64,000 bases of DNA, taken from assembly GCA_041650995.1 (NCBI GenBank), contig JBAZJZ010000001.1, positions 491,302 through 555,301 on the forward strand, given 5' to 3'. Under the pieces are notes generated by a model, which was given only the letters and a program-made list of their open reading frames with translations, had not been told where the DNA came from and searched no databases. Shown here in pieces: positions 543 through 55,021 of this stretch. The stretch comes from Patescibacteria group bacterium. GTDB taxonomy: Bacteria; Patescibacteriota; Patescibacteriia; XYB2-FULL-38-15. The stretch's first letter is position 1. Each line of letters starts with the position of its first letter. The position numbers and the translations under genes were made by a program.

Positions 543-690
543 CGATGCGGTAGCCGCGGGCTTTAGCCCGCGCTCTATTTGACGACGCAGCCTAAAGGCT
601 GCGACTACCAAAATAAATAATCAATTATCACGGCTGGGGCTACCAAAATTAAATCATTCGCGCCGGTAGCCGCGGGCTTTAGCCCGCGAA
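543..690. repeat. Cluster of REP-like palindromic units. Each is a short GC hairpin (cgcgggc-ttta-gcccgcg or gcagcc-taaa-ggctgc) joined to a G(A/G)CTACC tail, in alternating orientations.
   Basis: There are perfect hairpins at 555-572, 587-602 and 671-688. The GGTAGCC/G(A/G)CTACC tail recurs at 549-555, 603-609, 637-644 and 665-671. The units lie immediately 3' of the transposase gene. Confidence 0.7.
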
Positions 691-1164
691 AATCCAATCA
701 TCAAAATTATACAGTGTAGAGCCCCTAAAAGGATACCCAAGCCAGTCACGCGCCAAACCTTTTCTTTGGACATTTTCCAGAATATATTTAACTTGTTTAA
801 TGATGTCTTCATCTCTTCTTAAAATATGATCGTAAAAATCTTTTTGCCACTTAACGCCAAATTTTGAACACGAAAACCAATAGCCTGATCTTTGCTTAAA
901 TTCCACAATACACTTATACAGATTGGAGGACTCTTGTTTCCCTTCTATCACGAAGTGACAGTGATCGGGCATGAAATAATAAATATGGGCCTCACAACAA
1001 ATTTTTTTTAGTGTGCTTAATAAAATATTCTCTAATTGATTAAAAACATCCGGAGAAACAAAAAACGGTTGTCTATCCTCCAAACAAATTGTGAAAGCGC
1101 AGATTATTTGGCCGATGTAAAGATCCCTTGGTAGCCGATGCTTTCGTTCGTTAATTTTAAACAT
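679..1164 (-). CDS. REP-associated tyrosine transposase (RAYT) / IS200-IS605 family TnpA-like HUH transposase
   Basis: The 161-aa product carries an HUH motif (PDHCHFVIEG) and a downstream Tyr in ...KYILENVQRKGL..., matching the Y1 transposase / Transposase_17 fold. It is flanked on both sides by REP-type hairpins. Confidence 0.7.
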   Translation of the reverse strand: MFKINERKHRLPRDLYIGQIICAFTICLEDRQPFFVSPDVFNQLENILLSTLKKICCEAHIYYFMPDHCHFVIEGKQESSNLYKCIVEFKQRSGYWFSCSKFGVKWQKDFYDHILRRDEDIIKQVKYILENVQRKGLARDWLGYPFRGSTLYNFDDWIFAG

Positions 1165-3416: not shown

Positions 3417-4526
3417 TTATTTATTATTCTGTTCCTTTTTCCATTTTAAATATGCCTCCATAAACTGTTCCAAATCTCCATTAAGCACCGCGTCTGTATC
3501 CGCTGTTTCAAGTTTTGTTCTGTGATCTTTAACCATTCGGTACGGCTGCAAAACATATGACCGAATTTGATTTCCCCACGCCGCCAAAACTCCGGCTCGT
3601 AATTTATCAATTTCCTTTGTTCGGGTCTCCTCCTGCAGATGTAAAATTTTTGCTTTCAAAATTTTTAGGGCGGTTTCTTTATTTTGAGCCTGTGAACGTT
3701 CGCGCTGGCAGCTTACGGTGAGACCCGTGGGAAGATGAACAACTCTAACGGCCGAATAAGTTGTCTGCACGCTTTGTCCGCCGTGTCCGCTTGATAGATA
3801 TGTGTCGATCCGCAAATCTTTCGAATCCAATTTTATTTCTGAGACATCGTCAATTTCCGGCAAAACTTCAACTAAAGCAAACGAAGTATGCCGCATTTTT
3901 TCCGCATCAAAGGGAGAAATACGGACTAAGCGATGAACACCGGATTCACTCCGAAGCCATCCATAAGCCATCCGACCGGTGACTCTTACTGTTATGCTCT
4001 TAATGCCCGCTTCAGAACCACGCGTTTCATCAATAATTTCTGTTTTCCATCCCTTCTTCTCGCAAAACCTAAAATACATTCTGAGAAGCATCTCTGCCCA
4101 ATCCTGGGCTTCAGTGCCGCCCGTTCCGGCATGAATACTCAAAATGGCGTTCGCTCGATCGTGCGGGCCGGAAAATAAAACAAAAAATTCCAACTTCCTA
4201 AATTGAACGAGAAGCTCATTATATTTTTTTTCAATCTCTTCGCGCAAAGAAACTTCTTTGTCCTTTTGATCGAGCTTGGCCAAATCCAAAATATCCCCCA
4301 CTTCTTTTTTTAATTTTTCCCAAACTTCAACCTCTTCTTTCAAATCATTCAATCTCTGGTTCGTTTCCTTCGCCGCTTCCTGATCTTTCCAAAACTCCGG
4401 CGCCAAAGTTAATTTTTCCAATTTGACGATTTCTTTTTTACTATTTCCTAACTTTAAAAGTTCAAAGGCCTTTTCTATCCTCTGCTCCAACTCTTCTATG
4501 CTTTTAACTAATTCGTCCATTTTCAT
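3417..4526 (-). CDS. prfB: Peptide chain release factor 2
   Basis: The SPF tripeptide and the GGQ motif (SGHGGQSVQTT) are both present. The gene is encoded as a single uninterrupted ORF with no programmed +1 frameshift site. Confidence 0.9.
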   Translation of the reverse strand: MKMDELVKSIEELEQRIEKAFELLKLGNSKKEIVKLEKLTLAPEFWKDQEAAKETNQRLNDLKEEVEVWEKLKKEVGDILDLAKLDQKDKEVSLREEIEKKYNELLVQFRKLEFFVLFSGPHDRANAILSIHAGTGGTEAQDWAEMLLRMYFRFCEKKGWKTEIIDETRGSEAGIKSITVRVTGRMAYGWLRSESGVHRLVRISPFDAEKMRHTSFALVEVLPEIDDVSEIKLDSKDLRIDTYLSSGHGGQSVQTTYSAVRVVHLPTGLTVSCQRERSQAQNKETALKILKAKILHLQEETRTKEIDKLRAGVLAAWGNQIRSYVLQPYRMVKDHRTKLETADTDAVLNGDLEQFMEAYLKWKKEQNNK

Positions 4527-4553
4527 AATTTACAACTAACCTCCCGATTAAAG

Positions 4554-5801
4554 TTATTCTTTATACTCGGCAAGTGTTACTCTCACATCTTTTTCTTCGC
4601 CTTTGTGCAAAACTTTCAAAGTTATTTCATCGCCCGGCTTAGATTTAGCAATTTCCTTGGCTAAAGGATGATCTTCGTCTATTTTTTGACCATTCATTTC
4701 CAAAATTATATCATTCTCAACCAAACCCGCTTTGTCGGCCGGTGAGCCGGGCACTATGGCTAAATCCGTCTGCTTTTGGCCGCGGACAATTAATGCCCCA
4801 TAATCTTTTTCCAATTGATTTTCCTTGGCTATTTCTTGATTAATCAAAACATAACGAACGCCGAGCCATGGCCGAATAATTTTTCCATTCATTTTTACGC
4901 TCTCTATATCCTGCTTGGCCGCATTAATCGGAATAGCAAAACCGATCAACTGTCCTTCCTGGTTCATCGCTGTGTTAATGCCAATAACCTGCCCAGCGAG
5001 ATTCACGAGCGGTCCGCCGGAATTTCCCGGATTTATAGCCGCGTCAGTTTGAAGCGCTTCTTCAATAACCTCTGAACCACCAAGTCGATCACTCGCCACG
5101 ATCCGTCGCCCTATGCCAGAAATTATGCCTTTAGTCACGGCATTTTTATATTCCCCGAGAGAATTACCGATGGCAATAACCGTCTGACCAATTTCAATTT
5201 TATCGGAATCTCCCAATTCCACGGTTGGCAAATCTTTGGCGTCAATTTTTAAGACGGCAATATCCAAAACCGGATCAGTGGCTAAAATTTTCGCGTCATA
5301 TCTTTGATCGTCATTTGTAATAACCGTATATTCCGCCGCTGTGTCTGAGACCACATGTTTATTAGTTAAAATCAACCCATCCGAAGAAATTATAAAGCCC
5401 GTTCCCCCGCCAATTTCCGTTTTGCCCGTGCCGCCACTATTACCGCCCGTGTTTGGCTGCTCAAAACCAAAAGGAAAATTAAAACCAAACAAATCGTAAG
5501 GAAAAGTATTTGAATTATTAATTTTACTTAAATCTTTAGAAATAATTATTGAAACAACGGCCGGAGCAACTTTTTTTACGGCGCTAATTGTTGCCGACTC
5601 CTCAATAACCGCCTGAGTAAACACTCTCTCACTTTCATCGTTTCCGATTACAACGTCTTCACCTAAAAAATTCTTTTGAAACCATGGAACAATATGGCTC
5701 TTACCATAAAGCCCGCCGAGCACACCACCCACTCCGCCAAAAATTAAGCCAACGAGCGCCGCAACAGCAATAATTTTTTGAAAAGATTTATCTTGAAACA
5801 T
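4554..5801 (-). CDS. htrA: HtrA/DegP-family periplasmic serine protease with a C-terminal PDZ domain
   Basis: There is an N-terminal TM anchor, a trypsin-like catalytic core with GNSGGPL around the active Ser, and a C-terminal PDZ-like region. Confidence 0.85.
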   Translation of the reverse strand: MFQDKSFQKIIAVAALVGLIFGGVGGVLGGLYGKSHIVPWFQKNFLGEDVVIGNDESERVFTQAVIEESATISAVKKVAPAVVSIIISKDLSKINNSNTFPYDLFGFNFPFGFEQPNTGGNSGGTGKTEIGGGTGFIISSDGLILTNKHVVSDTAAEYTVITNDDQRYDAKILATDPVLDIAVLKIDAKDLPTVELGDSDKIEIGQTVIAIGNSLGEYKNAVTKGIISGIGRRIVASDRLGGSEVIEEALQTDAAINPGNSGGPLVNLAGQVIGINTAMNQEGQLIGFAIPINAAKQDIESVKMNGKIIRPWLGVRYVLINQEIAKENQLEKDYGALIVRGQKQTDLAIVPGSPADKAGLVENDIILEMNGQKIDEDHPLAKEIAKSKPGDEITLKVLHKGEEKDVRVTLAEYKE

Positions 5802-16791: not shown

Positions 16792-19700
16792 TTATCTTAC
16801 GGTAAAGTAAATACTGCGTTCTCCGCCAATACTTTCGATTGGCGGCGCTGGTGCCGGAATAACTGGTGAGGAATCAAGTCCAAAGTCAACCGTACCGTCT
16901 AAATTATAAGTAACATTATAATTACCACTCGGCGTTCCACTCACATAAACAATTCTGAGATGATGCCGGCCTCTTGATAAGGTGTTTACTGCTGCAAACG
17001 TTGATCGACAAACTTCATCACCCCACGCACAAACTCTCCACTGGACAACTTTATGATTATCAATGTAAACGTCGAAAATATCATCGTCGACGCCAGTGAC
17101 GCGTAAATTTACTGTCGCACAATTTGTCTCGCCGTCCATACAACCATCAACATTACTATTATCATTTGGATCGCAAGCGTCAATTATTCCGTCATTATCA
17201 GCATCCGGATTTCTCGCACCGCTAGGCCCATATTTTCTATTGTCGCAAGCTTGGCCAGCGGCGCAAGTGATAGCACAAGATGCCGGACTACAAGTCGGCG
17301 CGGCTAAATCATATGGTTTTGCCCAAGGATTTGAAGTATCAACGCAGATCCAATTCGCGGGATAGGCCGGTAAATGGCTATCGCACTGCTCTGTTCCATT
17401 AACTGTACCATCGCCGCAAGTCGGACCGCTTGCAGTTCGCAAGGTGCATTCGCGGCTGCAATAATTGCAAGTTGAACCATATGGCGCCGTGCACGGCGTG
17501 CCATTGACCGCATCTCCGGAATCGCACGCCTCTATTCCGGCTCTTGTAAACCCGTCGCCGCAACGGGAACTTTGACAATTAACGCAAGCATCAGTATTTA
17601 TGTCATTACCATCGTCACATTGTTCGCCACCCTGCACAATTCCGTCACCACATTCCCCTGTCACGGTGCAAGAGCTCCAGCCTTCGTCTTGCCAACGGCA
17701 TTGTCTTATATCACCAGGTATTTCACAATTTAAAGTTCTGACCCTTGGATAACCCGTTCCTGTCTCTGGGGCACATAACAGACATTCCTCACCTGACCCG
17801 CAATCCGCGTTACTTTCACAAATTACAGTATAATAGCTAGGAAGGATTGGACTTTCTGGACTTAAATATTCCTCAACCGGAACACAAACACCTCTTGAGG
17901 AAATTTGATTTCTATCACACTCCTCTTGCGGTTCATCCACCACTGTATTCCCACAATATGGCGCCGAGCCAACACAACCCGCGGCGCAATACGGCGTGCC
18001 GTCAGGTTTTTTTCCATATCGGCCATTATCCGCTCCATCGTCGCACCGTTCACCGTAAGCACTTTGCAAAATTCCATCACCACAATAACCGCCGCTCATT
18101 CGGCAAACCGTGGAGCACTGATATTGATTTGTCGGCAATGTCCCGCCACCCGGAATTCTTCCCCCTCCCGGTCCGCGGTCGCAGGCTTCGCCAGTATCAA
18201 TAATTCCATTACCACAAGTGGCAAGACATGTCCCCCAATCATTCCAGCGGCAAGTAGCTAAATTACAAGTACGGCTTTGGCGGCCGTTTGCGCCGCTCGA
18301 GGCGGTACAAACTTGTTCGTTAACGCGGCATGTTCCGCCGCCACAATCCGCGTCAGTCCGGCAAGAAATTGTCGGATCATTAGAGCACGTATTTGCCAAA
18401 CTTGGTTCGCATTCTTCGCTGGCGTTAATTATTCCGTCGCCGCAAATTCCGCCCACGCTGTAAATTGTGTTATTGCAAACGTCTTCATATTGGATTCTTG
18501 ACGGATGCGCTGCCCGGAACCAATGCCAGCTTGGATTTGTTTCCGGAGGAATCATGTATTCTAAATCACTACCAATATTATAAAATCCCGTTTCTGACTC
18601 ATAACGATATTGATAAATATGCGATAAGCCTGGGCAAACGTAAGACTCTCCACTTGTATTCCAGCAAGTATCGGCGCTGTAAGGATCCAGACAACCTTGA
18701 AATTTATTTAATGGGTCAGTCGGCAAGCCGCCGCCGAGCTCCTGGCCAAGGGTTGCCCAAGAGTCCCATTTGCTAGTGGAAATCCCGCGGACATACGAAC
18801 CCGCTTCCAATTTTGGCGGATAGCCTCGCATGGCCATATATCTTTCCACTGCCTCTTTAATTTTATCCAAATCAGATAAACGCTGGACATCGCGCGCCAG
18901 TTTATCTTTTGGCGAATCACATAAAAATTGTGTCGGAGTTTGTGGACAATCTAAATCCGCTGAACAAGAAATTACCGCGCCATCCGCATCTCGCGCCACG
19001 ACTCCCTCGGCGTTACGGCACACTTTGTTGTTCGCCAAATTAATATTAAATTTCCAATTATCCACTAACTGATTATAAATATCAATCGTGTCTTGGCTCG
19101 CGCCTTCATTATATGAAATTAAATAAACATTTGTATAAATATCCGGTTCGGAACCAGAACCGTCCGCACCTCTCGGTTGATTGGCCGCTGAAACATAAAT
19201 CGTCCGGCCGTCTTCCGCCGCTTGATATTGGTCAATTGTTTTTCCGCCCGAAGCTGATGGCCTGAATCCCTGAGCTAAATACCAATCAAACAAAGCCAGG
19301 TGATTTTTGTTTGTGTAAATTCTAATGCCAATCGCGTCAGACGAGCTTTGACATGAGCCGCCCCCTGGGGCGCAAGGACTTTCCGTGTTGCAAGGAAGTT
19401 TGGAAAGAGTGCAGTAACTTCCGCCGACAAACAAGAAATATTCCCTGAGCAAAAAATCTGTCGAGCCGACAGGCGCGGGCGGATTATTTACAACCGGCGG
19501 ATCGCTAATTGTCGGCAAATCGTCGCCAAAACCAATTTCTCCCCTATCCTGACAATAATATGTTTCAAAGTTATATGTTTCATCAATCAATGCTTCCCCG
19601 GTCACACCAAACCTGTCTGGCCACGGATTTTCACAAAGGAAAACTGTTATGTCGGCTCCGCTGCTTATAACTTTCCCCACGGTGCGCGGCGACAAAACTG

Positions 19701-22700
19701 TATCCGTCGTAATTTTTGCCGAAACCAAAATTCTTGCTTCGCCATTTTTATTTTGCGCTGTCGCTGTCTGGCGCTCGCTAAATTGGCAAATACCCCCTGA
19801 ACCACAATCACTATTTCTATTACATCTAGTTCCTGTTTCAACGCAAGATCCCTCGGGAACCAAGTCAACTACAGTTAAATCGTTGGACAACCAATCCTGC
19901 CATTCCCAGTAATAAACATCCGGAAGGCGAGAAAGCATTCTCCCTCGCGCGTCACGGGCCGTGGCAAGAAATTCATGAGTTTCTTCGCTTCGCGTAAAGA
20001 CATAAGAAGCGGGAGAAACTACTACTTGGCTCAAAGCACAAATACTGCTTCCAGTTTCAAAATCCCACCGATAAATTTCCCTGCCACTATAAGCTTCTGG
20101 ATATTCACCATACAACCTTCCGCCTCCCAAAGCCACACCTTTTGAATTTCTAATTCCTTTAATTTCCGGCGATCCGGGATTATCACCTAAAAGTAAAACT
20201 CTATACCTGCGTCCGCCGTCAAAAGCTTTAGTCGGGCTAAAGCTTGCTTCGGTCACCAAATCACTGCCCTTACTTACAACTGTAGATGACGCCGTTCCTG
20301 GCCAGACACACCATGGAGAGGGCGGAGCGGCGCTCACTGGCCGGCCAAACAATGCTTGGCTTAACTGGTTAATTACATTTTTAACTTGACTCAAAATTTC
20401 TAAATCTTTTTCTATTTTGGAAATCGGCTTGATTAATAATCTCGCGATCGGCACTGGCAGCCATTTTTTTATTTTTTGAACAAAGTGGAAACCACCCGTT
20501 TCTTCTCCGGTCCACAAAGCCAGAGAAGTTGTCCCCTCAGGGCACGCGCCGCCGTAATCGCCAACCACTAAAATATTCCCTGTTATGCTTGCCGTTTCCA
20601 TTATTTGATCAAAAGTCACGGAAATTTTAGCATTGCGGCAGACATCAACCGCTCCGGATTCACAAGCAGTTGCGCCATCCCGAGTAGGATCGCAGTTTGC
20701 TACTTTCGGTTTAAAATAGCAGCAAGTATTCCGACCCACTCCTAGCACACAATCAGCATCACTTGTGCAGGTTTGCGAAGTCGTCCCCTCGCACACATGA
20801 GATGGCATACATGACAAATGAATCGCTCCACAATCTTGTCCGCCGCAGCGCAAAGTTAAATCACCGCTATCAGATTTTCCTTCGGTCTCAGCAAAAATTT
20901 CCGTAGTGCTGGAATTTACTCCGGCAGCCACAGCTTCTGGCGCAAGATCAATTGCTGTTGCCGTTTGGTATGGATCAATTCTCGTATCTCTAACTGTTCC
21001 CTCGTTTAAACAAGTTACGCTGCAACCATCACCAGAAACCGCGTTCCCGTCATCACAATCTTCGCCGCGTTCTACTGAACGATTTCCGCAAACTCCCCCG
21101 CCGGCTACAGATCCTTCGTGCTGACAGATATTATTACATCCGTCGCCCGAACGAGTATTTCCGTCGTCGCAGTCCTCGCCCACGTCAATAACTCTATTGC
21201 CACAATGAGTTGATCCTTCATTTAAACAAGCTCCCGCTCCGCCGCAGGGCGTACCAATTCCTGGCGGACAGCCAGTGCACCCGTCGAGAGAAACTGTGTT
21301 GCCGTCATCACAATCTTCGCCAAATTCTTTTACACTATTTCCGCAAGACGGATAATTATTGTTATTTGTAATCGTCGCTACTCCCGGATCGGCCGAAGTC
21401 CATCTCCAATTGTAGTCCATAACAGAAAGACGCTGACCGATCGGACTGCAAAGATCTGGATTACTAAAAGGCGTGGAAGAATAATTTTGTGTTTCGCCGA
21501 TAAAATTTAAAATTGCATTTTGCGGATTAACCACGACACGATCCACAGTGCAAGGATTGGTATCATCTTTAGTCTTGAAAGACCAAGAGTATGAATTTGG
21601 ACTCCCGACCGGATAATTTAAATCAGTCAAATGAACACCGCTTGCTGATGTTACATCATCGGAAATTACCGCGCGATAAAAAGTATTGGGTAAAAATAGT
21701 GTGCCTGCGGGTGGAGCAATTATTAATTTCTTTGTCGTATCATTATAAGAAAGACCCAAAGGAAGAACTTCTGTCAACGGCCGTGTCCCTTCATTTAAAC
21801 AAGTTATTGTGTTACAACCTGCGGGAAATGGCGAACCATCACAATCCTCACCCTCTTCAATAATTCCATTGCCACAATTTGGTCCGAGATTTCCCTCATT
21901 TAAACAGGTTACGCGATTACAACGCTCCGGAAACGGCACGCCATCGCAATCTTCTCCTGTCTCCCGGCGGTCATTACCGCAATATGATCCATAACGCGCG
22001 TTTGATCCTTCATTTAAACAAGTCTCACTGCAACCATCACCAGAAACCGCATTCCCGTCATCACAATCTTCGCCTGGCTCAAGCACACCATTACCACATT
22101 TCCAAATATAAAGATGAACATTCGCCGCGCTCTCCACGCTCGCCCGATTCATATTTGTATTAAATTCCGCGCCGATTTCCGCGTTAATACAAGCGTCGCT
22201 GCAATTCGGCCAACTATCTTTTACCTTTGGATCAGTAAAATCTATGGTCAAATTTCCCGAGCCAGACTTTATTTCACTCGGAATCTCGCCAGTAATCCGA
22301 ACCGGCGAGCCAACTTCTGTTTCTGCCCGAGCTGTAGCAATGGTACGCGGAGTCGCACTGATTGCAACTACTGCCCTTATAATATCTGATGAAGTCCAGC
22401 GCCAATCATACGGACTACAGTCAATAGTTAGACAAACATCACCGGCGGCGTAACAAAGGCCATTATAATCTTGCGTCGCGTCAACACTCGTCAATGTCAT
22501 TTCATAAGGCAAAACTCCCACCAAACCAATCGCGCAAGTTTCGTCACTGTCGCGAGTTTTAAATTGCCAAACATAGTCCCCGCCTTCCACACCGTCTCGA
22601 TCGCCGTCCAAGAAAAATCCTCCGTCCGGACATCCGACGCCGCCGAGACAACTTTTTATTCCTGTGCCTGCAGCCACATCACTTTTTAAAGTTACTTGAT

Positions 22701-25512
22701 ACCAAGTATTTCGCGCCCAGCTGGTTGCAGGTTGAAAAACAAAACCATCCCGATCAGAAGAAATGGCCTCATGTTGAGGATAAAGCGCTCGCGCGGGTTT
22801 TATAGTTCTGGCTACACATGTTTGGTCAGCGCACTCTTCTACTAAAATATTTTCACTATTTATTGACGCTGAATTTATTTTTGTCGTAAAATGAGCTCTA
22901 ACCTCGGCGTTAACACAAACCCGGTCTCCGCCATCTCGTCCAATCCAGGGCGAGGGAGAAGGCGGTGGCGGTGGCGGATTACTACAACTTTCCACCACTT
23001 GCGGATAAATCGGAAGCTGACCAGTAGAAAATTGCCAGAAATAATATCCTCTACCAGCGGCAGCCGCGCAAGCCACGGCGCAACTGCCATCGCGGCAGCA
23101 TTGCTCCCCCGAAGGACAAGCCGCGCCCGCGCGGCAATCTTGAACTATAAAATTAACGCTATTACCCGTGGCTCCCCCGGAAGTAATATTAACCGGACCA
23201 GTTTGGGCTCCTGTTGGCACGGCCGTAGAAATCTCTGTGCCATCAATCGGCGTAACCGTCGCGGGAGTCGCGCGATAAAAATTAACTAAAGCGGACGCTC
23301 CAAATCTCTCTCCATCAATTCTCACCGGTAAATCAATCGGCCCGTTATCTAGAGTAATTTTACAAATGCCCGGCCCGGCCGTCCCTATATCAACCGTAAA
23401 ATCTGAGGTGGTTAAATCACTTGTATCATCAGACTGGCCGCCCGCGGTTCCCGCGGTTGTAATTTTCAAAACATCTGTTACCGCACCGGCCGGTACCTTT
23501 ACAATAATTTGATCATTTTTCCACCAATCTGCGCCGCAAGCCGCGGGAAAATCAGTCGCGGCTAAAATATCCGCGCCCAAAGCGTTCTTAAAAAATACCT
23601 GACCAGTCGCGTCCCCGAAATTGGCGCCGAAAATCGTCACATACTCGCCCACCGGTCCGTGCGTCGGAGAAAAACTTAAAATTCTCGGAGCGGCGGCCGT
23701 CGCGACAACTCTAAAATTAATTGGATTGCTATTTTGTCCGCCAACCACGACCTGAGCCGGAATGGTCGCCGGAGCAATTAAAGGGACAACCGCGCCAATA
23801 CTTGTGGCCGTCCAAAGAATAACTCGTTCGGCTCGCGTACCGCCAAAAAGAATTTCACTTGTTCCTTGTGTTCCGCCAAATTGTGTGCCGGCAACAACGA
23901 CTTCGAAACGGGGTTCTCCGCTGTCTGGCGTGATGGAACAAATTCCCGGCCGGCTTGTATCATTCACATCAAAATTCGGCAAAACCGGACCGCGTTCATC
24001 ATCAGTTTGGTCAGTGTAGTCGGCCGCAGTCGCGCCGGTTGGCGGTGGAACAACAACTTTAATCGGACCATCAGTCGCACCCGCGGGCACAACCACAATA
24101 ATCTGATTATTTTGCCATGTGGCTGAAGCGGGACAAGCAGGCGACCCAGCTAATACAGTATTAAAATAAACCTGTCCGAGGACATCGCCAAAACCTTCCC
24201 CATAAATTGTCACATAATTTCCCACTGCGCCGTCATTTGGCAAAACCGCGGTAATTGTAGGCAATGTTCGGCAAACCCCGCCAATGCACGTGCCGCTTCG
24301 GCAGTCGGCGCCGCTCGTGCAAGATCCTCCATCACAAGTTCCGCAATCAGCTCCGCCGCAATCAAGTCCGGTTTCGTCTCCATCTTGGCTACCATTAAAA
24401 CAATGTGCCGCTCGGACAATAACATCCACGCCGCCGGAAGTCGTATTATTTGAATCAATATCAAAAGCTTTAGCAGTTAAAGTATGCCGCGAACCAGCCA
24501 CGATGCCGGTCGTATCCCAGTCAAAAATTGAAGAATAATCACGCGGCGTTGGGCCACTTGGCGCGTCTGTGCCGAGCGTTCCGCCATTTGAAAAATATTC
24601 CAAATAAGAAACTCCCGCATCATCAGTGGCGTGCGCTTCAATTGAAACTATTACGTCCGCGGAAACCGATTGCCCCGGATCAGGATAAGTAATTCTCACT
24701 TCCGGTCCGGTCACGTCAACTAAATTTCCTGTTGTAAAATTGGCAATACAATTTGGCGCGAGCCCGCCGCAAACCAAATTTCTGCCATCAGCGCTTCTGA
24801 GCCCTGTTGTCGCTTCCACGGTAAATTCCGTATCCCCATCAAAACACTTTCTATCTTCATTCGGCGCCGGACAATTAGCGCTCGGAGTAAATTCCACGAC
24901 CGTGCCGGAAGCACTCGCCGTTCCGTCCACCAAACTTCCGTCAGTCGTTTTTTTCACGGTTAAATTTCCAGTTAAAGTTGTCGCGTCAACATCTTTATTA
25001 AAGACAACCCGCACAACAACATTACGAATTGGAATCGCGCCATTCGGCTGAATACCGCGAATAACAAAAGAGTCTGAAGGCAAACCACCGCCGCCTCCGC
25101 CTCCACCGCCGCCTCCGCCTCCACCGCCGGGAGTTATGCCAGTCGCTTCCATTAATCTATTTAAAACAAACTGGGTAATCCCAAAAGAAAAAATAATAAT
25201 AATCAAACCAATCACGCCGTTTACCAAAATCTTTTTTGCCTTACTGATTCTTTCTTCATTGCCGGCTGCCGTCATCCAAACAAAACCGCCGTATAAAACA
25301 ATGGCCACAGCCACAATTCCCAAAAACCCAAGCGCCACGCGAATAATCTGCGCTGCGACAACTCGAGGATCTTGGGTTGGCAAAGCGATTTCATTCCCCA
25401 CTTCGTTCACGCCAAAATCCTGGGCAAAAATCGTTGTAGCAAATAAAAATCCACTTGTGATTAAAAACAAGGTGAAAAGGATTTTTAAAATTTTTCTCTC
25501 GTGTGGTTTCAT
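16792..25512 (-). CDS. Giant (2906 aa) cell-surface protein. It has a signal peptide plus two-helix membrane module, a 15-residue poly-Gly linker, IPT/Ig-like domains and more than 10 Myxococcus-type cysteine-rich repeats (CGNGxxExGExCDDGN...DGC).
   Basis: It is a single uninterrupted 8.7-kb ORF. Cys-rich repeats include CGNGVLEPGEDCDDGNAVSGDGCSETC, CGNRVIDVGEDCDDGNTRSGDGC and CGDGIVQGGEQCDDGNDINTDAC. IPT-like segments include ITAVLPNDGAVGNYVTIYGEGFG. The N-terminal module is shared with the ORF at 26494-28383. Confidence 0.85.
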   Translation of the reverse strand: MKPHERKILKILFTLFLITSGFLFATTIFAQDFGVNEVGNEIALPTQDPRVVAAQIIRVALGFLGIVAVAIVLYGGFVWMTAAGNEERISKAKKILVNGVIGLIIIIFSFGITQFVLNRLMEATGITPGGGGGGGGGGGGGGGLPSDSFVIRGIQPNGAIPIRNVVVRVVFNKDVDATTLTGNLTVKKTTDGSLVDGTASASGTVVEFTPSANCPAPNEDRKCFDGDTEFTVEATTGLRSADGRNLVCGGLAPNCIANFTTGNLVDVTGPEVRITYPDPGQSVSADVIVSIEAHATDDAGVSYLEYFSNGGTLGTDAPSGPTPRDYSSIFDWDTTGIVAGSRHTLTAKAFDIDSNNTTSGGVDVIVRAAHCFNGSQDGDETGLDCGGADCGTCDGGSCTSGADCRSGTCIGGVCRTLPTITAVLPNDGAVGNYVTIYGEGFGDVLGQVYFNTVLAGSPACPASATWQNNQIIVVVPAGATDGPIKVVVPPPTGATAADYTDQTDDERGPVLPNFDVNDTSRPGICSITPDSGEPRFEVVVAGTQFGGTQGTSEILFGGTRAERVILWTATSIGAVVPLIAPATIPAQVVVGGQNSNPINFRVVATAAAPRILSFSPTHGPVGEYVTIFGANFGDATGQVFFKNALGADILAATDFPAACGADWWKNDQIIVKVPAGAVTDVLKITTAGTAGGQSDDTSDLTTSDFTVDIGTAGPGICKITLDNGPIDLPVRIDGERFGASALVNFYRATPATVTPIDGTEISTAVPTGAQTGPVNITSGGATGNSVNFIVQDCRAGAACPSGEQCCRDGSCAVACAAAAGRGYYFWQFSTGQLPIYPQVVESCSNPPPPPPSPSPWIGRDGGDRVCVNAEVRAHFTTKINSASINSENILVEECADQTCVARTIKPARALYPQHEAISSDRDGFVFQPATSWARNTWYQVTLKSDVAAGTGIKSCLGGVGCPDGGFFLDGDRDGVEGGDYVWQFKTRDSDETCAIGLVGVLPYEMTLTSVDATQDYNGLCYAAGDVCLTIDCSPYDWRWTSSDIIRAVVAISATPRTIATARAETEVGSPVRITGEIPSEIKSGSGNLTIDFTDPKVKDSWPNCSDACINAEIGAEFNTNMNRASVESAANVHLYIWKCGNGVLEPGEDCDDGNAVSGDGCSETCLNEGSNARYGSYCGNDRRETGEDCDGVPFPERCNRVTCLNEGNLGPNCGNGIIEEGEDCDGSPFPAGCNTITCLNEGTRPLTEVLPLGLSYNDTTKKLIIAPPAGTLFLPNTFYRAVISDDVTSASGVHLTDLNYPVGSPNSYSWSFKTKDDTNPCTVDRVVVNPQNAILNFIGETQNYSSTPFSNPDLCSPIGQRLSVMDYNWRWTSADPGVATITNNNNYPSCGNSVKEFGEDCDDGNTVSLDGCTGCPPGIGTPCGGAGACLNEGSTHCGNRVIDVGEDCDDGNTRSGDGCNNICQHEGSVAGGGVCGNRSVERGEDCDDGNAVSGDGCSVTCLNEGTVRDTRIDPYQTATAIDLAPEAVAAGVNSSTTEIFAETEGKSDSGDLTLRCGGQDCGAIHLSCMPSHVCEGTTSQTCTSDADCVLGVGRNTCCYFKPKVANCDPTRDGATACESGAVDVCRNAKISVTFDQIMETASITGNILVVGDYGGACPEGTTSLALWTGEETGGFHFVQKIKKWLPVPIARLLIKPISKIEKDLEILSQVKNVINQLSQALFGRPVSAAPPSPWCVWPGTASSTVVSKGSDLVTEASFSPTKAFDGGRRYRVLLLGDNPGSPEIKGIRNSKGVALGGGRLYGEYPEAYSGREIYRWDFETGSSICALSQVVVSPASYVFTRSEETHEFLATARDARGRMLSRLPDVYYWEWQDWLSNDLTVVDLVPEGSCVETGTRCNRNSDCGSGGICQFSERQTATAQNKNGEARILVSAKITTDTVLSPRTVGKVISSGADITVFLCENPWPDRFGVTGEALIDETYNFETYYCQDRGEIGFGDDLPTISDPPVVNNPPAPVGSTDFLLREYFLFVGGSYCTLSKLPCNTESPCAPGGGSCQSSSDAIGIRIYTNKNHLALFDWYLAQGFRPSASGGKTIDQYQAAEDGRTIYVSAANQPRGADGSGSEPDIYTNVYLISYNEGASQDTIDIYNQLVDNWKFNINLANNKVCRNAEGVVARDADGAVISCSADLDCPQTPTQFLCDSPKDKLARDVQRLSDLDKIKEAVERYMAMRGYPPKLEAGSYVRGISTSKWDSWATLGQELGGGLPTDPLNKFQGCLDPYSADTCWNTSGESYVCPGLSHIYQYRYESETGFYNIGSDLEYMIPPETNPSWHWFRAAHPSRIQYEDVCNNTIYSVGGICGDGIINASEECEPSLANTCSNDPTISCRTDADCGGGTCRVNEQVCTASSGANGRQSRTCNLATCRWNDWGTCLATCGNGIIDTGEACDRGPGGGRIPGGGTLPTNQYQCSTVCRMSGGYCGDGILQSAYGERCDDGADNGRYGKKPDGTPYCAAGCVGSAPYCGNTVVDEPQEECDRNQISSRGVCVPVEEYLSPESPILPSYYTVICESNADCGSGEECLLCAPETGTGYPRVRTLNCEIPGDIRQCRWQDEGWSSCTVTGECGDGIVQGGEQCDDGNDINTDACVNCQSSRCGDGFTRAGIEACDSGDAVNGTPCTAPYGSTCNYCSRECTLRTASGPTCGDGTVNGTEQCDSHLPAYPANWICVDTSNPWAKPYDLAAPTCSPASCAITCAAGQACDNRKYGPSGARNPDADNDGIIDACDPNDNSNVDGCMDGETNCATVNLRVTGVDDDIFDVYIDNHKVVQWRVCAWGDEVCRSTFAAVNTLSRGRHHLRIVYVSGTPSGNYNVTYNLDGTVDFGLDSSPVIPAPAPPIESIGGERSIYFTVR

Positions 25513-31253: not shown

Positions 31254-31330
31254 TGGTGGACGATGGAGGATTCGAACCTCCGACCTTTCGAATGTGAATC
31301 GAACGCTCTAACCAGCTGAGCTAATCGTCC
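31254..31330 (-). tRNA. tRNA-Val (anticodon CAC)
   Basis: It folds into a 77-nt cloverleaf by hand: acceptor GGACGAT/ATCGTCC, anticodon loop TTCACAT, T-loop TTCGAAT, with CCA encoded. Confidence 0.85.
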
Positions 31331-41010: not shown

Positions 41011-41871
41011 TTATCTTTTGGAAATTTTTTTAATTATATCACTATATTCTTCATCACTATAAAAATGAATTATTATTTGGCCTTTCGCGCCTCTTTTCTT
41101 TATTTCCACCTTTGTCCCGAAAACACCGCGTAATAATTCTTCTTTAGCCGCGAGTGCCGGATCAACTTTTCTTTGTCTCACTCCTTTTACTTTTTTTACC
41201 GCGCTCTCTGTGTCGCGGACAGTCATTTCATTTTTCAAAATTTTAGAAAAATATTTTAATTGTGATTTCTCGTCGGGTAAAGACAAAAGTGTGCGACCGT
41301 GGCTTTCTTTTATCTTTCCACTTCGGAGCGCTTGTAAAATTTCTTCCGGCAAACTAAGCAAACGCAAAGTATTGGCAATAACTGGCCGACTTTTACCAAC
41401 TCTTACTGCTACTTCTTCCTGTGTTAAATTAAATTCATCCATCAATCTTTGAAATGCCCTGCCCTCTTCAATCGGATTTAAATTTTTCCGTTGGATATTT
41501 TCAATTAAAGCCAGCTCTAATTTTTCCTGATCCTTGGCTGTCCGGACAATCGCCGGTACAGTTTTCAAATTCAAAAATTTCGCGGCGCGGTAACGGCGTT
41601 CGCCGGCGATTAACTCATAGTTTTCTGCGTCAATTTTTGTGACGACAAGGGGCTGCAAAATCCCATGTTCCTTGATGGAATTTATCAAATCCTCCAAATC
41701 CTGATAGCCAAAATCTTCGCGCGGCTGTTTCGGATTCGGCCGGATGTTTTTCACAGGAACGTCAACGAGGCGAACACCCTGTGGCGCCGCTTCAGCTCCG
41801 GAAGAAAACGCTTGAACTATTCTTTTTGGAGGAATTAATGAATTTAGTCCTCTGCCCAGACCATATGACAT
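41011..41871 (-). CDS. parB: Chromosome partitioning protein ParB/Spo0J
   Basis: The ParB box reads LIAGERRYRAAKFLNL. Confidence 0.9.
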   Translation of the reverse strand: MSYGLGRGLNSLIPPKRIVQAFSSGAEAAPQGVRLVDVPVKNIRPNPKQPREDFGYQDLEDLINSIKEHGILQPLVVTKIDAENYELIAGERRYRAAKFLNLKTVPAIVRTAKDQEKLELALIENIQRKNLNPIEEGRAFQRLMDEFNLTQEEVAVRVGKSRPVIANTLRLLSLPEEILQALRSGKIKESHGRTLLSLPDEKSQLKYFSKILKNEMTVRDTESAVKKVKGVRQRKVDPALAAKEELLRGVFGTKVEIKKRGAKGQIIIHFYSDEEYSDIIKKISKR

Positions 41872-41889
41872 ATATATAATTTAAATTTT

Positions 41890-42654
41890 TTAAAATTTAA
41901 TTTCCAAAATTTCTCGCGCCAATCTTTCATATGCTTTAGCTCCCTTGCTTTTATCATCATAATGCAAAATCGTTAAACCATGAGATGGGGCCTCGGCTAA
42001 TCTGACGTTTCTCGGAATAACCGACCGAAAAATTTTATTTGGAAAATATTGATACAGCTCTTTTAAAATTGCGTCCGAAAGTCCGACGCGGCTATCAAAC
42101 ATAGTAATGACCGCGCCCAAAATTTTTAAATCCGGCTTGAGGTTATCTTGGACCAATTTAATTGTTTCAAGTAATTGACCAAGCCCTTCCAGGGCGTAAT
42201 ACTCCGCCTGAACTGGGATAAAAACATGATCGGCCGCGGTTAAACTATTTATTGTCAAAAGCCCAAGCGACGGCGGGCAATCAATAATGATGTAATCAAA
42301 ATCATTGCGTGCTTCAAGCAAAGCGTCATATAGACGAAATTCCCGCCTATCAGCACCAACAAGTTCCACGTTCGCTCCGGCCAAAGAAACCGTGGCTGGA
42401 GCAACTTTATAACCCTGAACAGGAGTATTTACAATAATATTTCTAAATGGTGATGCCCCGGCAATGGCTTCATATACACCCTTTTCTAAATTGCGATGAT
42501 CAATACCAAGCCCAGAGGTAGCATTGGCCTGCGGATCCATGTCCACGAGAAGAACAAATTTTCCAAGGTGTGCCAAATAAGCGCCCAAATTTACGGCAGT
42601 CGTCGTTTTGCCCACTCCGCCTTTTTGGTTGACAATAGAAATAATTTGAGCCAT
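41890..42654 (-). CDS. parA: Chromosome partitioning ATPase ParA/Soj
   Basis: A deviant Walker A motif is present (KGGVGKTTTAVNLGA). Confidence 0.9.
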   Translation of the reverse strand: MAQIISIVNQKGGVGKTTTAVNLGAYLAHLGKFVLLVDMDPQANATSGLGIDHRNLEKGVYEAIAGASPFRNIIVNTPVQGYKVAPATVSLAGANVELVGADRREFRLYDALLEARNDFDYIIIDCPPSLGLLTINSLTAADHVFIPVQAEYYALEGLGQLLETIKLVQDNLKPDLKILGAVITMFDSRVGLSDAILKELYQYFPNKIFRSVIPRNVRLAEAPSHGLTILHYDDKSKGAKAYERLAREILEIKF

Positions 42655-42732: not shown

Positions 42733-42816
42733 TAAACTGACGCCGATGTGGCGGAACTGGCATACGCGTGCGACTCAAAATCGCATTCCCTTACGGGATT
42801 GTGGGTTCAACTCCCA
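42733..42816 (+). tRNA. tRNA-Leu (anticodon CAA), long variable arm; CCA not encoded
   Basis: It folds by hand: acceptor GCCGATG/CATCGGC, anticodon loop CTCAAAA, a 14-nt variable arm, and T-loop TTCAACT. Confidence 0.75.
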
Positions 42817-42876
42817 CCATCGGCACTTTGACAAAATATTATATATTAGTTATTCTAATATATAATATAAAATTAT

Positions 42877-43121: not shown

Positions 43122-43198
43122 GGCTGGGTAGCTCAGTTGGTTAGAGCGAGGGACTCATAAGCCCTAGGTCGTCGGTTCGATCCCGACCCCAGCCACCA
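43122..43198 (+). tRNA. Elongator tRNA-Met (anticodon CAT; tRNA-Ile2 not excluded)
   Basis: It forms a 77-nt cloverleaf with a G1-C72 pair, anticodon loop CTCATAA and T-loop TTCGATC, and CCA is encoded. Confidence 0.8.
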
Positions 43199-51920: not shown

Positions 51921-52341
51921 TTTTACTTAAATCTCCCTCTAAAACAATCGGCTGCATGGCGATGATTTCATCTTTATAGCCCATTTCTGGAATTGGATTT
52001 AAAAGAAAAATTTCTTTATTCAAAACATGAGCAAAACCCATTTCAAGTAATGAATTTCCGCCAATATAATTTGGAATACCATGACGTTCATTATTCAAAA
52101 CCAAAATTGCATCACCACCCTTTATTTCATCAAAATAATAACGGATAAGCCCATGCTTTATTTTGTTGGCAGCTGATTCGCGATGCACTATTTCAGATGT
52201 CCCCATATCAGCATAATCGTATGTAAATTTTGGCAGGATAACTTCGTGACCATACTTCCGTAATTCTTTTTCCGCCGCCACCATTTCCTTGGCGAAAGTC
52301 ATACTGCCGCAAATAACGATTTTCATATTATTTTTCCACAA
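51913..52341 (-). CDS. Nucleoside 2-deoxyribosyltransferase-like protein
   Basis: The N-terminus reads MKIVICGSM, and the flavodoxin-like size and pattern fit. The call is tentative. Confidence 0.35.
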   Translation of the reverse strand: MWKNNMKIVICGSMTFAKEMVAAEKELRKYGHEVILPKFTYDYADMGTSEIVHRESAANKIKHGLIRYYFDEIKGGDAILVLNNERHGIPNYIGGNSLLEMGFAHVLNKEIFLLNPIPEMGYKDEIIAMQPIVLEGDLSKIE

Positions 52342-53719
52342 TTTTAATGTGCGCTTCTTTCAATTGCTGCTCCGGCAAATCCGACGGGGCCCCCATCATT
52401 AAATCGCGGGCATCGGAAGTTTTTGGGAAAGCCATCACTTCACGAATATTTGGTTCGCCGGCAAAAATCATCGCCAACCGATCAAGCCCCGGAGCAATAC
52501 CGCCATGTGGCGGCGCGCCATAAGTAAAGGCTTCAAAGATATGGCCAAAACGCGCTTCGGCGTCATCTTTACCAACGCCAAGCAATCGGAAAATTTTTGA
52601 CTGCAACGTTCGGTCATGAATTCTGATACTTCCTCCTCCAACTTCATAACCATTTAAAACCAAATCATAAGCATAAGCGCGAACATCAAGCGGATGTTCC
52701 TCTAAATCATCCATATCTTCCTTGTGCGGCATAGTAAATGGATGGTGGGAAGAAACCAATTTTTTTTCCGACTCAGACCATTCAAAAAGTGGAAAATCAA
52801 TCACCCAACAAAAAGCTAATTCATTAGAATTTTTTTTATCTTCACGCAAATCCGGCTTGTCGGTTTTATATTTTTTCATTGCCTCGTCATAAGTCAAAAC
52901 TGGAAAAGGCATCTTTTTAATTTTTTTATCCGGCACCACGGTTTTTGCCAAATGGATCATCAATTCTTCGGTTAATTTCATCACGTCCTCCTGTTCCGCA
53001 AAAGACATTTCCATATCAAGCTGAGTAAATTCCGGCTGGCGGTCGCCGCGCTGATCTTCATCGCGAAAACATCTGGCAATTTGAAAATATTTTTCAAAAC
53101 CAGCGACCATCAATAACTGTTTAAATTGCTGTGGTGATTGTGGCAGAACATAAAATTTTCCGGCATGTAAGCGCGCCGGCACAATATATTCACGCGCGCC
53201 CTCTGGCGTGCCTTTGGTAATGTAGGGCGTTTCTATTTCTGCGAAATTACGCTCGTGCAAAAATTTTCTTATTTCATCAAGCATTTTGCTCCGCAATAAA
53301 ATATTTGTTTTCATCCGCTCGCTTCGTAAATCAAGATATCTATATTTCATACGTAATTCTTCGCTGACGGGTGTTGTATCTTTATCAATTTCAAAAGGCA
53401 GCGTTTTTGATTCATTTAAAATCTCCAAATTTTTTGCTTCAAGTTCTACTGTGCCAGTTAACATTTTTGGGTTGATCATTTTCTCCGGACGTTTATTCAC
53501 TTTCCCGGTAATGGCTACAACAAATTCTGACCGCAACTTGTCGGCTAACGTCATAAATTCTTTATCTTTGGAAGCAAAAACTATCTGAATTAAACCACTC
53601 GTATCACGAAGATCAATAAAAATAATTTTGCCCATATCTCGCCGGACATGAACCCAACCCTTAAGAATAACTTCTTCGCCAATTTTTGAAACTGTGTCTT
53701 TTATAAGCGTGCGAGTCAT
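52328..53719 (-). CDS. aspS: Aspartyl-tRNA synthetase, short form lacking the GAD insertion domain
   Basis: An N-terminal OB fold is followed by a class IIb core carrying GGGSIRIH and FPKT...DLMMGAPS motifs. Length is 463 aa. Confidence 0.75.
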   Translation of the reverse strand: MTRTLIKDTVSKIGEEVILKGWVHVRRDMGKIIFIDLRDTSGLIQIVFASKDKEFMTLADKLRSEFVVAITGKVNKRPEKMINPKMLTGTVELEAKNLEILNESKTLPFEIDKDTTPVSEELRMKYRYLDLRSERMKTNILLRSKMLDEIRKFLHERNFAEIETPYITKGTPEGAREYIVPARLHAGKFYVLPQSPQQFKQLLMVAGFEKYFQIARCFRDEDQRGDRQPEFTQLDMEMSFAEQEDVMKLTEELMIHLAKTVVPDKKIKKMPFPVLTYDEAMKKYKTDKPDLREDKKNSNELAFCWVIDFPLFEWSESEKKLVSSHHPFTMPHKEDMDDLEEHPLDVRAYAYDLVLNGYEVGGGSIRIHDRTLQSKIFRLLGVGKDDAEARFGHIFEAFTYGAPPHGGIAPGLDRLAMIFAGEPNIREVMAFPKTSDARDLMMGAPSDLPEQQLKEAHIKIVEK

Positions 53720-53728
53720 AAATAATTT

Positions 53729-55021
53729 TTATGGTCTTAATCTATTAATCATTCTTGGAAAAGGGATCGTTTCGCGAACATGATGAATGCCGCACATCCA
53801 GCCGGTGATGCGCTCCAACCCGTAACCAAAGCCTGAGTGAGGAACCGAGCCGTATTTTCTTAAATCTAAATACCATTGAAAATCTTCAAGCAGCATTTTT
53901 TCTTCTTTCATTCGCGCAAGCAATAAATCATAATTGTCTTCACGCTCCGAGCCACCGATGATTTCTCCGTGGCCTTCCGGCGCGATTAAATCTGAACCCA
54001 AAACCAGTTCGGGATTTTTTGGATCGCGTTTCATATAAAAAGCTTTAATTTGCCGTGGCCACTTTTCCACAAAAATCGGTACGTCGGAATCTTGAGTCAG
54101 CAAAGTTTCATCGTCAGCACCCAAATCTTCGCCATCTTTAATATCAGACCCTAACGCTTGAACTTTTTTAACCGCTTCATGATAAGTCATTCGCCCAAAG
54201 GGAGCTTGAACTTTTTCTAATTTGGAAATATCTCGTTCCAAAATTTCCAATTCTTTTCTATTTTTTTCTAAAACTTTTTTCACGATATGGCAGATCAATT
54301 CTTCCTGAATTTTCATATTGCCCTCGTGATTAACAAAAGCCGCCTCGGCGTCCATCATCCAAAATTCCGTTAAGTGTCGGCGAGTTTTTGATTTTTCCGC
54401 CCGGAAAGTCGGGCCAAAGTCAAAGCATCGGCCAAAACTCATTGCCGCGGCTTCAAGATAAAGTTGACCTGACTGCGCAAGATAAGCTTTTCCTAAATCA
54501 AAATACGGAACTTCAAAAAGGGTCGTTGTTCCCTCGCAGGCGGTCGGGGTCAAAATCGGCGTGTCAATTTTTATAAAACCATTCTGATTAAAATATTCAT
54601 AAGTCGCGTTGATGACAGTATTTCTAACGCGAAGCGCCGCCCATTGTTTTGATGAGCGAAGCCAGAGGTGTCTTTGATCTAACAAAAAATCCGGGCCATG
54701 TTCTTTTTTTCCAATCGGGTACTCTTCAGCAATTTGAAGTATTTTTAAATTTTTAACTTGAAGTTCATACTCTTCTTTTTTGGGATGTTTACTGACAGTT
54801 CCGGAAATTTCTATCGAACTTTCTATAGTTATTTTTTCGCAAGCTTCCCAGATTTCTGGAGCTACTTCTTTTTTAGAAACAATCGCCTGGACAAAGCCTG
54901 AACCGTCACGAACTTGTAAAAAGAAAATGCTACCCGAGGAACGAAAATTAAAAATCCAGCCGCGAATCGCGACTTCCTGGCCTAAATATTGGCTAATATC
55001 TTTCAATAAAATCGTCTGCAT
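53729..55021 (-). CDS. asnS: Asparaginyl-tRNA synthetase
   Basis: It is a class IIb enzyme. The motif region reads GEIIGGSERE, and the C-terminus reads …PHSGFGYGLERI…IPFPR. Confidence 0.7.
   Translation of the reverse strand: MQTILLKDISQYLGQEVAIRGWIFNFRSSGSIFFLQVRDGSGFVQAIVSKKEVAPEIWEACEKITIESSIEISGTVSKHPKKEEYELQVKNLKILQIAEEYPIGKKEHGPDFLLDQRHLWLRSSKQWAALRVRNTVINATYEYFNQNGFIKIDTPILTPTACEGTTTLFEVPYFDLGKAYLAQSGQLYLEAAAMSFGRCFDFGPTFRAEKSKTRRHLTEFWMMDAEAAFVNHEGNMKIQEELICHIVKKVLEKNRKELEILERDISKLEKVQAPFGRMTYHEAVKKVQALGSDIKDGEDLGADDETLLTQDSDVPIFVEKWPRQIKAFYMKRDPKNPELVLGSDLIAPEGHGEIIGGSEREDNYDLLLARMKEEKMLLEDFQWYLDLRKYGSVPHSGFGYGLERITGWMCGIHHVRETIPFPRMINRLRP

Follow-up and report, generated by a model that had tools for sequence, protein, structure and literature searches.

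A 64,000-nucleotide stretch of contig JBAZJZ010000001.1 (GenBank assembly GCA_041650995.1, Patescibacteria group bacterium), here called the window, carries on its reverse strand, at 16792-25512, one unbroken open reading frame (ORF) with an ATG start and 2906 codons plus a stop. The encoded protein, referred to below as the giant, is probably a core and vertically inherited surface protein of the class ABY1, which would be membrane-tethered, fibrillar and engaged in contacts with host cells or surfaces. A sequence-only reading of the window had described a single uninterrupted 8.7-kb ORF of 2906 aa at this place, and the ORF scan and the translation bore this out. The same reading had proposed a giant modular extracytoplasmic surface protein in a reduced genome, which is supported by the domain content and by the relatives, found in Patescibacteria including Uhr-, Falkow-, Magasanik- and Kuenenbacteria. 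Cross-referencing with Table S1 of PMC12102498 covered 8 genomes of relatives and placed every one in the GTDB class ABY1.

We searched 5.8 billion proteins for relatives of the giant. The search returned 398 matches, more than 100 of which were 2,000-4,700 aa long and carried the same Pfam set. The named matches came from Patescibacteria, Uhrbacteria, Magasanikbacteria or Parcubacteria, and the databases call them 'Ig-like domain-containing', 'DUF4215 domain-containing' or 'hypothetical' proteins. A BLAST-chain profile showed that aa 1-2700 of the giant were colinear across 111 more distant relatives; aa 1-1150 and 1400-2700 were conserved, whereas aa 1150-1400 were variable, and the last ~190 residues occurred in close relatives only. 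Judged by these matches, the giant is a member of a large uncharacterised family and not a strain-specific adhesin. The orthologues that the sequence-only reading had suggested looking for in related genomes were found; their family is large and holds a constant place in the core genome.

The window genes from S21 to FtsZ lie on one strand with short gaps. The conserved order of the locus is SPase I, HisRS, S21, YqeY, a pilin-fusion paralogue of the giant (600-900 aa), the giant, TSP3 membrane proteins, YbeY, DAGK, FtsA and FtsZ. This order was kept in the loci of four relatives (36-80% identity), and tblastn then recovered it from 76 more loci of GTDB species representatives; comparisons covered up to 81 related loci from Falkow-, Uhr-, Magasanik-, Kuenen- and Komeilibacteria, and the synteny misses fell mostly at contig ends. 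With a hidden Markov model (HMM) of the pilin domain, a pair of one medium (~560-1,140 aa) and one giant (~1,800-4,300 aa) protein was detected in 60 of the 81 loci, and a third copy was seen in 10 more. The medium and giant ORFs adjoin and commonly overlap, with the paralogue immediately upstream of the giant's start. The hairpin of the paralogue is ~78% identical to that of the giant over the first 120 aa. Horizontal transfer of the giant was ruled out by this class-wide synteny, together with a GC content at third codon positions (GC3) like that of its neighbours.

Hydropathy analysis confirmed the signal peptide and the two hydrophobic helices noticed in the sequence-only reading: a signal-peptide-like segment lies at aa 7-31 and the helices at aa ~49-84 and ~89-121. 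The family consensus V-x-A-Q coincides with the predicted signal peptidase I (SPase I) site. The two helices had been described simply as a membrane module. Their presence stands, but on profile evidence the module is a VirB2-like pilin domain and not a generic anchor. It matches the Pfam type IV secretion system (T4SS) family T4SS_pilin (PF18895) with 28.0 bits in the whole protein, 30.7 in the first 400 aa and 34.9 as an isolated domain, against a curated gathering cutoff of 26.6 bits, and the N-terminal domains of all 32 relatives tested also passed this cutoff (best E 1.9e-14). Two of these 32 domains further matched TrbC/VirB2, which was weak in the giant itself, and the NCBIfam model NF045849 for the pilin-like protein of a Mycoplasma integrative and conjugative element gave an E value of 2e-7, under its cutoff. 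The hairpin profile had no match among PDB sequences at E<=10. Across the 111 distant relatives, the hairpin region aa 51-100 showed 53% identity, a value exceeded only at aa 351-400, and the 32 aligned hairpin domains shared seven invariant columns (Y, G, M, T, G, A and G). The giant resembles PF18895 pilins in its signal-peptide-like segment, two hydrophobic helices and short basic loop, but departs from their small size, the pilin domain spanning only aa ~49-121 of 2,906. Because the loop NEERISKAKK is basic, the positive-inside rule predicts that it is cytoplasmic, with the two hairpin ends and the 2,760 residues that follow outside the cell.

A linker rich in Gly, Pro and Ser, of variable length (~12-30 aa), directly follows the hairpin in all family members examined. 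In the giant it is a tract of 15 glycines, which the sequence-only reading had placed at about 25085-25130 and which spans exactly 25084-25128, with the codons GGC, GGT and GGA; P0001, an orthologue with 80% identity, has G7-P-G8 at the same position. Slippage of this tract is plausible from its repeat structure. Since the repeat unit is 18 bp, slippage would lengthen or shorten the linker by six glycines, in frame, without switching the gene off, and on/off phase variation through the tract was ruled out for this reason. The tract thus appears to be a tether of adjustable length, unable to serve as an on/off switch.

Beyond the linker, the giant matched Big_5, Big_7, TIG and DUF4215 in Pfam, in addition to T4SS_pilin, and TIGR02232 in NCBIfam. 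The IPT/Ig-like domains of the sequence-only reading were recovered as three TIG stretches, three Big_5 stretches above threshold with weaker ones besides, and Big_7. The cysteine-rich acidic repeats matched TIGR02232 (myxo_disulf_rpt; 132.5 bits in 8 stretches) and DUF4215 (PF13948; 102.7 bits in 6 stretches), both above cutoff. More than 10 such repeats had been claimed before. An HMM built from the giant's own copies indeed gave 11 significant and 2 borderline ones, which fall into two triplets and, towards the C-terminus, a degenerate block, whereas the curated models yielded only 6-8. The whole protein contains 144 cysteines, an even number. To our knowledge, no function has been established for this repeat in any organism. 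For the Ig-like region at aa ~1600-1870, the top Foldseek matches were the S-layer protein SbsC and the Ig domains of LdtMt2, with TM scores of 0.14-0.19.

About one third of the giant had no annotation before structure prediction. AlphaFold2 models built with family alignments reached a mean confidence (pLDDT) of 71.5 for aa 1521-2420, and a pLDDT of 77.5 with a pTM of 0.77 for aa 1905-2335. In these models the centre of the giant takes up a PsbP/LpqN-like fold, after which comes a head like that of type IV pilins and the type II secretion protein GspG. Behind a 29-residue helix, the head matched PilA4 (score 5.9), a Shewanella pilin (5.9), EpsG (5.8, 18% identity) and PulG (4.5, 20% identity). 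At the sequence level, 5 family members out of 18 had a match to Pfam T2SSG, with 0.004 as the best E value, and a profile search of the PDB reached GspG at E~1 only; the assignment of the head is moderately supported. The head is internal and no hydrophobic segment precedes it. It lacks a class III signal peptide and the hydrophobic alpha1-N helix, and therefore cannot be a usual filament subunit. The PsbP/LpqN-like cassette could, from its modelled fold, bind ligands, and the fold hints at a lipid or a glycolipid. A single-sequence search of the giant's centre against the PDB returned only a marginal match to the C-type-lectin-like NKG2-D (E 0.035), at aa ~1836-1904 (window ~19801-20007) and partly in a low-confidence loop.

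The same PsbP-like and pilin-like cassette also stands directly after the signal peptide in proteins of 456-1,124 aa (P0238, P0234, P0216, P0247 and P0186), and is thus a self-contained module on which other surface proteins draw as well. Searched exhaustively by HMMER, aa 1905-2335 returned 1,471 clusters at 50% identity, 848 of them at E<=1e-30; most were giants, and a few were short proteins carrying the cassette directly after the signal peptide. Among the 81 related loci the tip occurred only in the two that encode P0001, and P0002, whose locus lies outside the 81, aligned to it at 44-56% identity. More distant relatives carry VWA, CarboxypepD_reg or malectin domains, which are absent from the giant and were C-terminal where checked (VWA in P0004).

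These features suggest the following arrangement. The giant would be exported by Sec and cleaved by signal peptidase, with its VirB2-type hairpin staying in the cytoplasmic membrane, the basic loop inside and the C-terminus outside. The flexible Gly-rich tether would link the hairpin to the ectodomain of ~2,760 residues. Its stalk would be made of Ig-like domains (Big_5, Big_7 and TIG) and disulfide-knotted acidic repeats, bearing the PsbP/LpqN-like and pseudopilin-like cassette, and would end in a distal tip domain that differs between lineages. Together with the paralogue and the TSP3 membrane proteins, the giant may form a surface assembly that contacts a host cell or a surface; we infer its surface exposure, its complex with the neighbours and its adhesive role. 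Contact with a host or a surface is the most plausible role by analogy, because the genomes are reduced and because adhesins and VirB2-like pilins are essential in the one genetically tractable relative (PMC10633639, PMC12857230 and PMC11665869). Both are required for epibiotic growth of a cultured Saccharibacterium (PMC10633639 and PMC12857230).

Several observations weigh against this assignment. The 2,700 conserved residues and the fixed place beside ybeY-dagK-ftsA-ftsZ suit a structural role in the envelope equally well. Host recognition usually evolves fast, and identity to the 80% orthologue was fairly even along the giant, without a hypervariable patch. The very high conservation of the hairpin argues for a role beyond anchoring. 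No recognised adhesive or enzymatic domain was found in the giant. Furthermore, the confidence of the AlphaFold2 models was moderate (pLDDT 71-78), and they covered aa 1521-2420 only.

The conservation of the hairpin bears on an alternative, in which the giant and its paralogue are extracted from the membrane by a T4SS encoded elsewhere and become minor or tip subunits of a pilus, holding a 300-kDa binding arm outside. We consider such pilus display unlikely, though several points favour it. The hairpin, with its seven invariant residues, is conserved far beyond the needs of a simple anchor, and every member tested passed PF18895. Both pilin termini face the filament exterior in F, T and pKM101 pili, and the topology would therefore allow a C-terminal fusion. 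VirB4 was found elsewhere in 6 of 8 family-bearing genomes; in one genome VirB3, TrsD and VirB4 form a cluster that has a VirB2 of its own close by. Patescibacteria typically carry divergent VirB2-like pilins in tandem arrays, and S. epibionticum cannot do without them (PMC12857230). However, neither the 39 ORFs scanned in the window nor the flanks annotated with Pfam at four related loci (L001 and L003-L005) contained a T4SS machinery family, and VirB4 was not detected in the other 2 family-bearing genomes, both drafts (PMC12102498 Table S1). Moreover, a VirB2 helix has no room for a bulky C-terminal extension on each of its subunits, and pilus display would therefore work at low stoichiometry only. 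ABY1 organisms are not known to make a pilus. It is improbable that the pair represents an undescribed use of a conjugative-pilus subunit, in which the hairpin would serve as an assembly or insertion module for mounting ectodomains of 60 and 300 kDa on a T4SS-type filament or at its tip, or with hairpins that oligomerise into a filament base of their own. If true, the 'T4SS pilus' of Patescibacteria would be a host-contact organelle with a built-in giant adhesin.

A purely structural function has a similarly small chance of being right. The giant would then form a coat or S-layer-like lattice, or an envelope-spanning scaffold for integrity or division, and would recognise no partner. The best structural match of the central region was indeed an S-layer protein, SbsC, and Big_5 is an Ig domain of the SbsA type. 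The class-wide core conservation and the location with ybeY-dagK-ftsA-ftsZ point in the same direction, and TSP3 repeats of the Ca-binding type and acidic Cys repeats would suit lattice formation. However, at TM scores this low the Foldseek match reflects generic tandem Ig arrays, and the gene order beside ftsAZ may be ancestral synteny only. A membrane-inserted monomer of 300 kDa with a swappable tip (VWA, malectin or CarboxypepD_reg in relatives) is also more fibre-like than lattice-like.

A chimeric or mis-assembled ORF, or a pseudogene-like read-through of repeats, might be feared from the metagenome-type sequence, the internal repeats and the simple-sequence tract, but such an artefact is extremely improbable, because public assemblies include at least 2 contigs with the identical protein, P0001 is colinear from end to end and was assembled independently twice (an NCBI metagenome-assembled genome and Logan), 111 relatives are colinear, and the longest DNA repeat inside the ORF is 72 bp. 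The assembly error that the sequence-only reading had worried about is unlikely for these reasons. The stop-to-stop frame exceeds the ORF by 4 codons only, and the chance of 2,906 codons without a stop at ~45% GC would be negligible. Codon-position GC also speaks against an artefact: GC3 was 0.386, the same as in the adjacent housekeeping genes, and the raised GC of the giant sits in codon position 2 because of its composition rich in Gly, Cys, Ala and Pro. A scan for promoters and terminators gave counts near the shuffled expectation, and no clean intergenic terminator was found. Rfam detected three tRNAs only in the window and nothing tied to the giant gene.

Table 1. Features of the giant and of the genes beside it (window coordinates; aa numbers refer to the giant).
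Feature	Position	Strand	Remarks
Signal peptide, aa 1-31	25420..25512	(-)	MKPHERKILK + hydrophobic core ...IFA|QD; from hydropathy and family consensus; predicted cleavage site
VirB2-like T4SS pilin hairpin, aa 49-121	25150..25368	(-)	Helix 1, basic loop NEERISKAKK, helix 2; PF18895
Gly15 linker, aa 129-143	25084..25128	(-)	Perfect 18-bp x 2.5 tandem repeat, 100% matches
Big_5 Ig-like domain 1, aa 166-261	24730..25017	(-)	Pfam
Big_7 Ig-like domain, aa 270-347	24472..24705	(-)	Pfam
Conserved Cys-knot, aa 370-416	24265..24405	(-)	CFNG..DETG.DCGG..CG.C.GG.C; among the best conserved stretches of the family
IPT/TIG array, aa 418-790	23143..24261	(-)	3 Pfam stretches and a probable fourth
Big_5 Ig-like domain, aa 860-947	22672..22935	(-)	Pfam
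Cys-rich acidic repeats, triplet 1, aa 1139, 1178, 1213	21772..22098	(-)	TIGR02232, own HMM
Cys-rich acidic repeats, triplet 2, aa 1390, 1437, 1475	20983..21345	(-)	TIGR02232, own HMM
Ig-like/Big_5-like beta domains, aa ~1600-1870	19903..20715	(-)	Helical low-confidence insert; AlphaFold2, Foldseek, weak Big_5
PsbP/Mog1/LpqN-like alpha/beta domain, aa ~1950-2155	19048..19665	(-)	Motifs FLCENPWP, DAIGIRIY, YTNVYLISYN; approximate boundaries; predicted fold
Type IV pilin/T2SS GspG-like head, aa ~2197-2319	18556..18924	(-)	29-residue helix, then sheet; motif YPPKLEAG...W.SW...LP.DP.N; predicted fold
Degenerate Cys-rich repeat block, aa 2357-2714	17371..18444	(-)	5 significant and 2 borderline copies
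Variable C-terminal tip, aa 2720-2906	16795..17355	(-)	TSP3-like Asp-rich stretch and beta-rich domain
Upstream pilin-fusion paralogue, 629 aa	26494..28383	(-)	Pilin hairpin, Gly/Pro linker, Big_5; likely start ATG 3 codons in
Membrane-anchored ORF, 299 aa	25575..26474	(-)	Between paralogue and giant; N-terminal transmembrane segment; no Pfam match
Downstream single-pass membrane protein, 214 aa	16125..16769	(-)	TSP3 (Ca-binding type) repeats; homologue at the same position in 63/81 loci
Downstream single-pass membrane protein, 327 aa	15031..16014	(-)	TSP3-like stretch, C-terminal domain (weak PsbP_2); homologue in 63/81 loci

All neighbours of the giant in this cluster combine a transmembrane segment with domains of extracytoplasmic type. 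The 299-aa ORF was found at its position in none of the 81 related loci, but the other contig with the identical giant has it too; a conserved operon seems to have gained this gene recently and in this strain only. Its similarity to the 327-aa neighbour was not significant. In some Uhrbacteria (loci L017, L025, L046, L055 and L066), a third ORF of 250-330 aa with a weak pilin match (27-34 bits) lies upstream of the pair, giving a small-medium-giant series of pilin-fusion genes. Many of the compared loci (L007, L011, L012, L014-L016 and ~30 more), from metagenome-assembled GTDB representatives, are titled 'uncultured Gammaproteobacteria bacterium' (third-party co-assemblies), and L040 belongs to a 'Vicinamibacterales' bin; all show the full Patescibacteria synteny, and these titles or bin assignments look wrong by that measure.

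One related locus (L004, GCA_004297205.1) has genes for bAvd and RVT_1 at 3992-5325, resembling a diversity-generating retroelement (DGR), ~5 kb upstream of the conserved locus. The giant was considered as a DGR target on this account and set aside: no reverse transcriptase family was present in the 39 window ORFs, and in BLASTN of the ORF against the window (E<=1e-3) the sole match outside the ORF was a 221-bp segment of the pilin domain, 77% identical, that is common to the paralogue. Such a check could miss a short or heavily mutated pair of template and variable repeats. Elsewhere in the window, an IS200-like Y1 transposase ORF (PF01797, E 6e-7) lies at the edge (679-1164, reverse strand). 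The genes parB and parA occupy 41011-42654 (reverse strand), the gene orientation switches near 31.3 kb, and tRNA genes are located at 31257-31330 (reverse), 42742-42825 (forward) and 43122-43195 (forward). Two adjacent class II aminoacyl-tRNA synthetase paralogues (tRNA-synt_2 with an OB fold), presumably of the AspRS/AsnRS or LysRS types, lie at 52328-53719 and 53729-55021 (reverse strand).

Much of bacterial diversity belongs to the Patescibacteria, of which the few members in culture live fixed to their hosts. We know of no contact-interface molecules for most of their lineages, nor of any cultivated ABY1 member with a known host. The giant locus takes up more than 1% of a genome of ~1 Mb and keeps the same place across the whole class, and it joins two themes marked as essential by experiments in Saccharibacteria, VirB2-like pilins and surface adhesins. 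It offers three targets in ABY1, namely the conserved hairpin, the conserved PsbP-like/pilin-like cassette and the swappable tip, for localisation, host-finding pull-downs and cryo-electron tomography.

Small VirB2-like pilins and pilin arrays have been described in Patescibacteria, and the accessible text of the two papers concerned (PMC12102498 and PMC10633639) does not mention giant VirB2-like fusions. The part of the Patescibacteria literature that was available reports that no PrgB-type adhesins were detected, and we found no description of giant pilin fusions, or of DUF4215 in the candidate phyla radiation, in the open-access literature. Table S3 of PMC12102498 lists VirB2 homologues by PF18895 without protein length. 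The giant and medium fusions of ABY1 may figure among its 'pilins not near virB4', and censuses of 'VirB2 pilins' based on PF18895 may in general include proteins of thousands of residues.

Comparison with known systems places the giant between several of them. It shares with the VirB2/TrbC-type pilins of Patescibacteria a signal peptide, two hydrophobic helices, a short basic loop and an HMM score above threshold, and its locus likewise holds two to three divergent tandem copies in one orientation. However, ordinary pilins of this type are ~100-150 aa long and often encoded near virB4, whereas the hairpin makes up the first 4% of the 2,906 aa of the giant and also heads the 629-aa protein, and the pair sits in a housekeeping neighbourhood with no T4SS gene nearby. 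Compared with giant adhesins such as SiiE, LapA and those of the Bap type, the giant has a similarly great length, a tandem Ig-like stalk, acidic repeats of the Ca-binding type and a variable distal domain. The stalk expected of a fibrillar adhesin was observed both as Big_5, Big_7 and TIG domains and as structure matches to Ig arrays. Unlike these adhesins, the giant would be anchored by an N-terminal pilin-type hairpin and not by LPXTG, a type I secretion retention module or an autotransporter barrel; its stalk is free of near-identical repeats, and ~2,700 residues are colinear across the class.

The giant also resembles Myxococcus-type TIGR02232/DUF4215 proteins in its CGNG..E.GE.CDDGN...GDGC modules, present in 11-13 copies, which in its case are spacers in a much larger conserved architecture. 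In contrast to GspG and type IV pilins, its pilin-like head lies in the middle of the polypeptide, fused to the PsbP/LpqN-like domain, and has neither a class III signal peptide nor a hydrophobic N-terminal helix. With SbsA and SbsC of Geobacillus it has in common the Big_5 Ig-like domains and the best Foldseek match of its central region, but it is far larger, cysteine-rich and apparently membrane-anchored, and no SLH, secondary cell wall polymer-binding or cell-wall-binding domain was found in it with Pfam. As far as these comparisons indicate, the giant is not categorically new: its pilin and fibrillar kinds are both known, and it is their combination, a VirB2-like hairpin heading a giant surface protein, that appears to be new.

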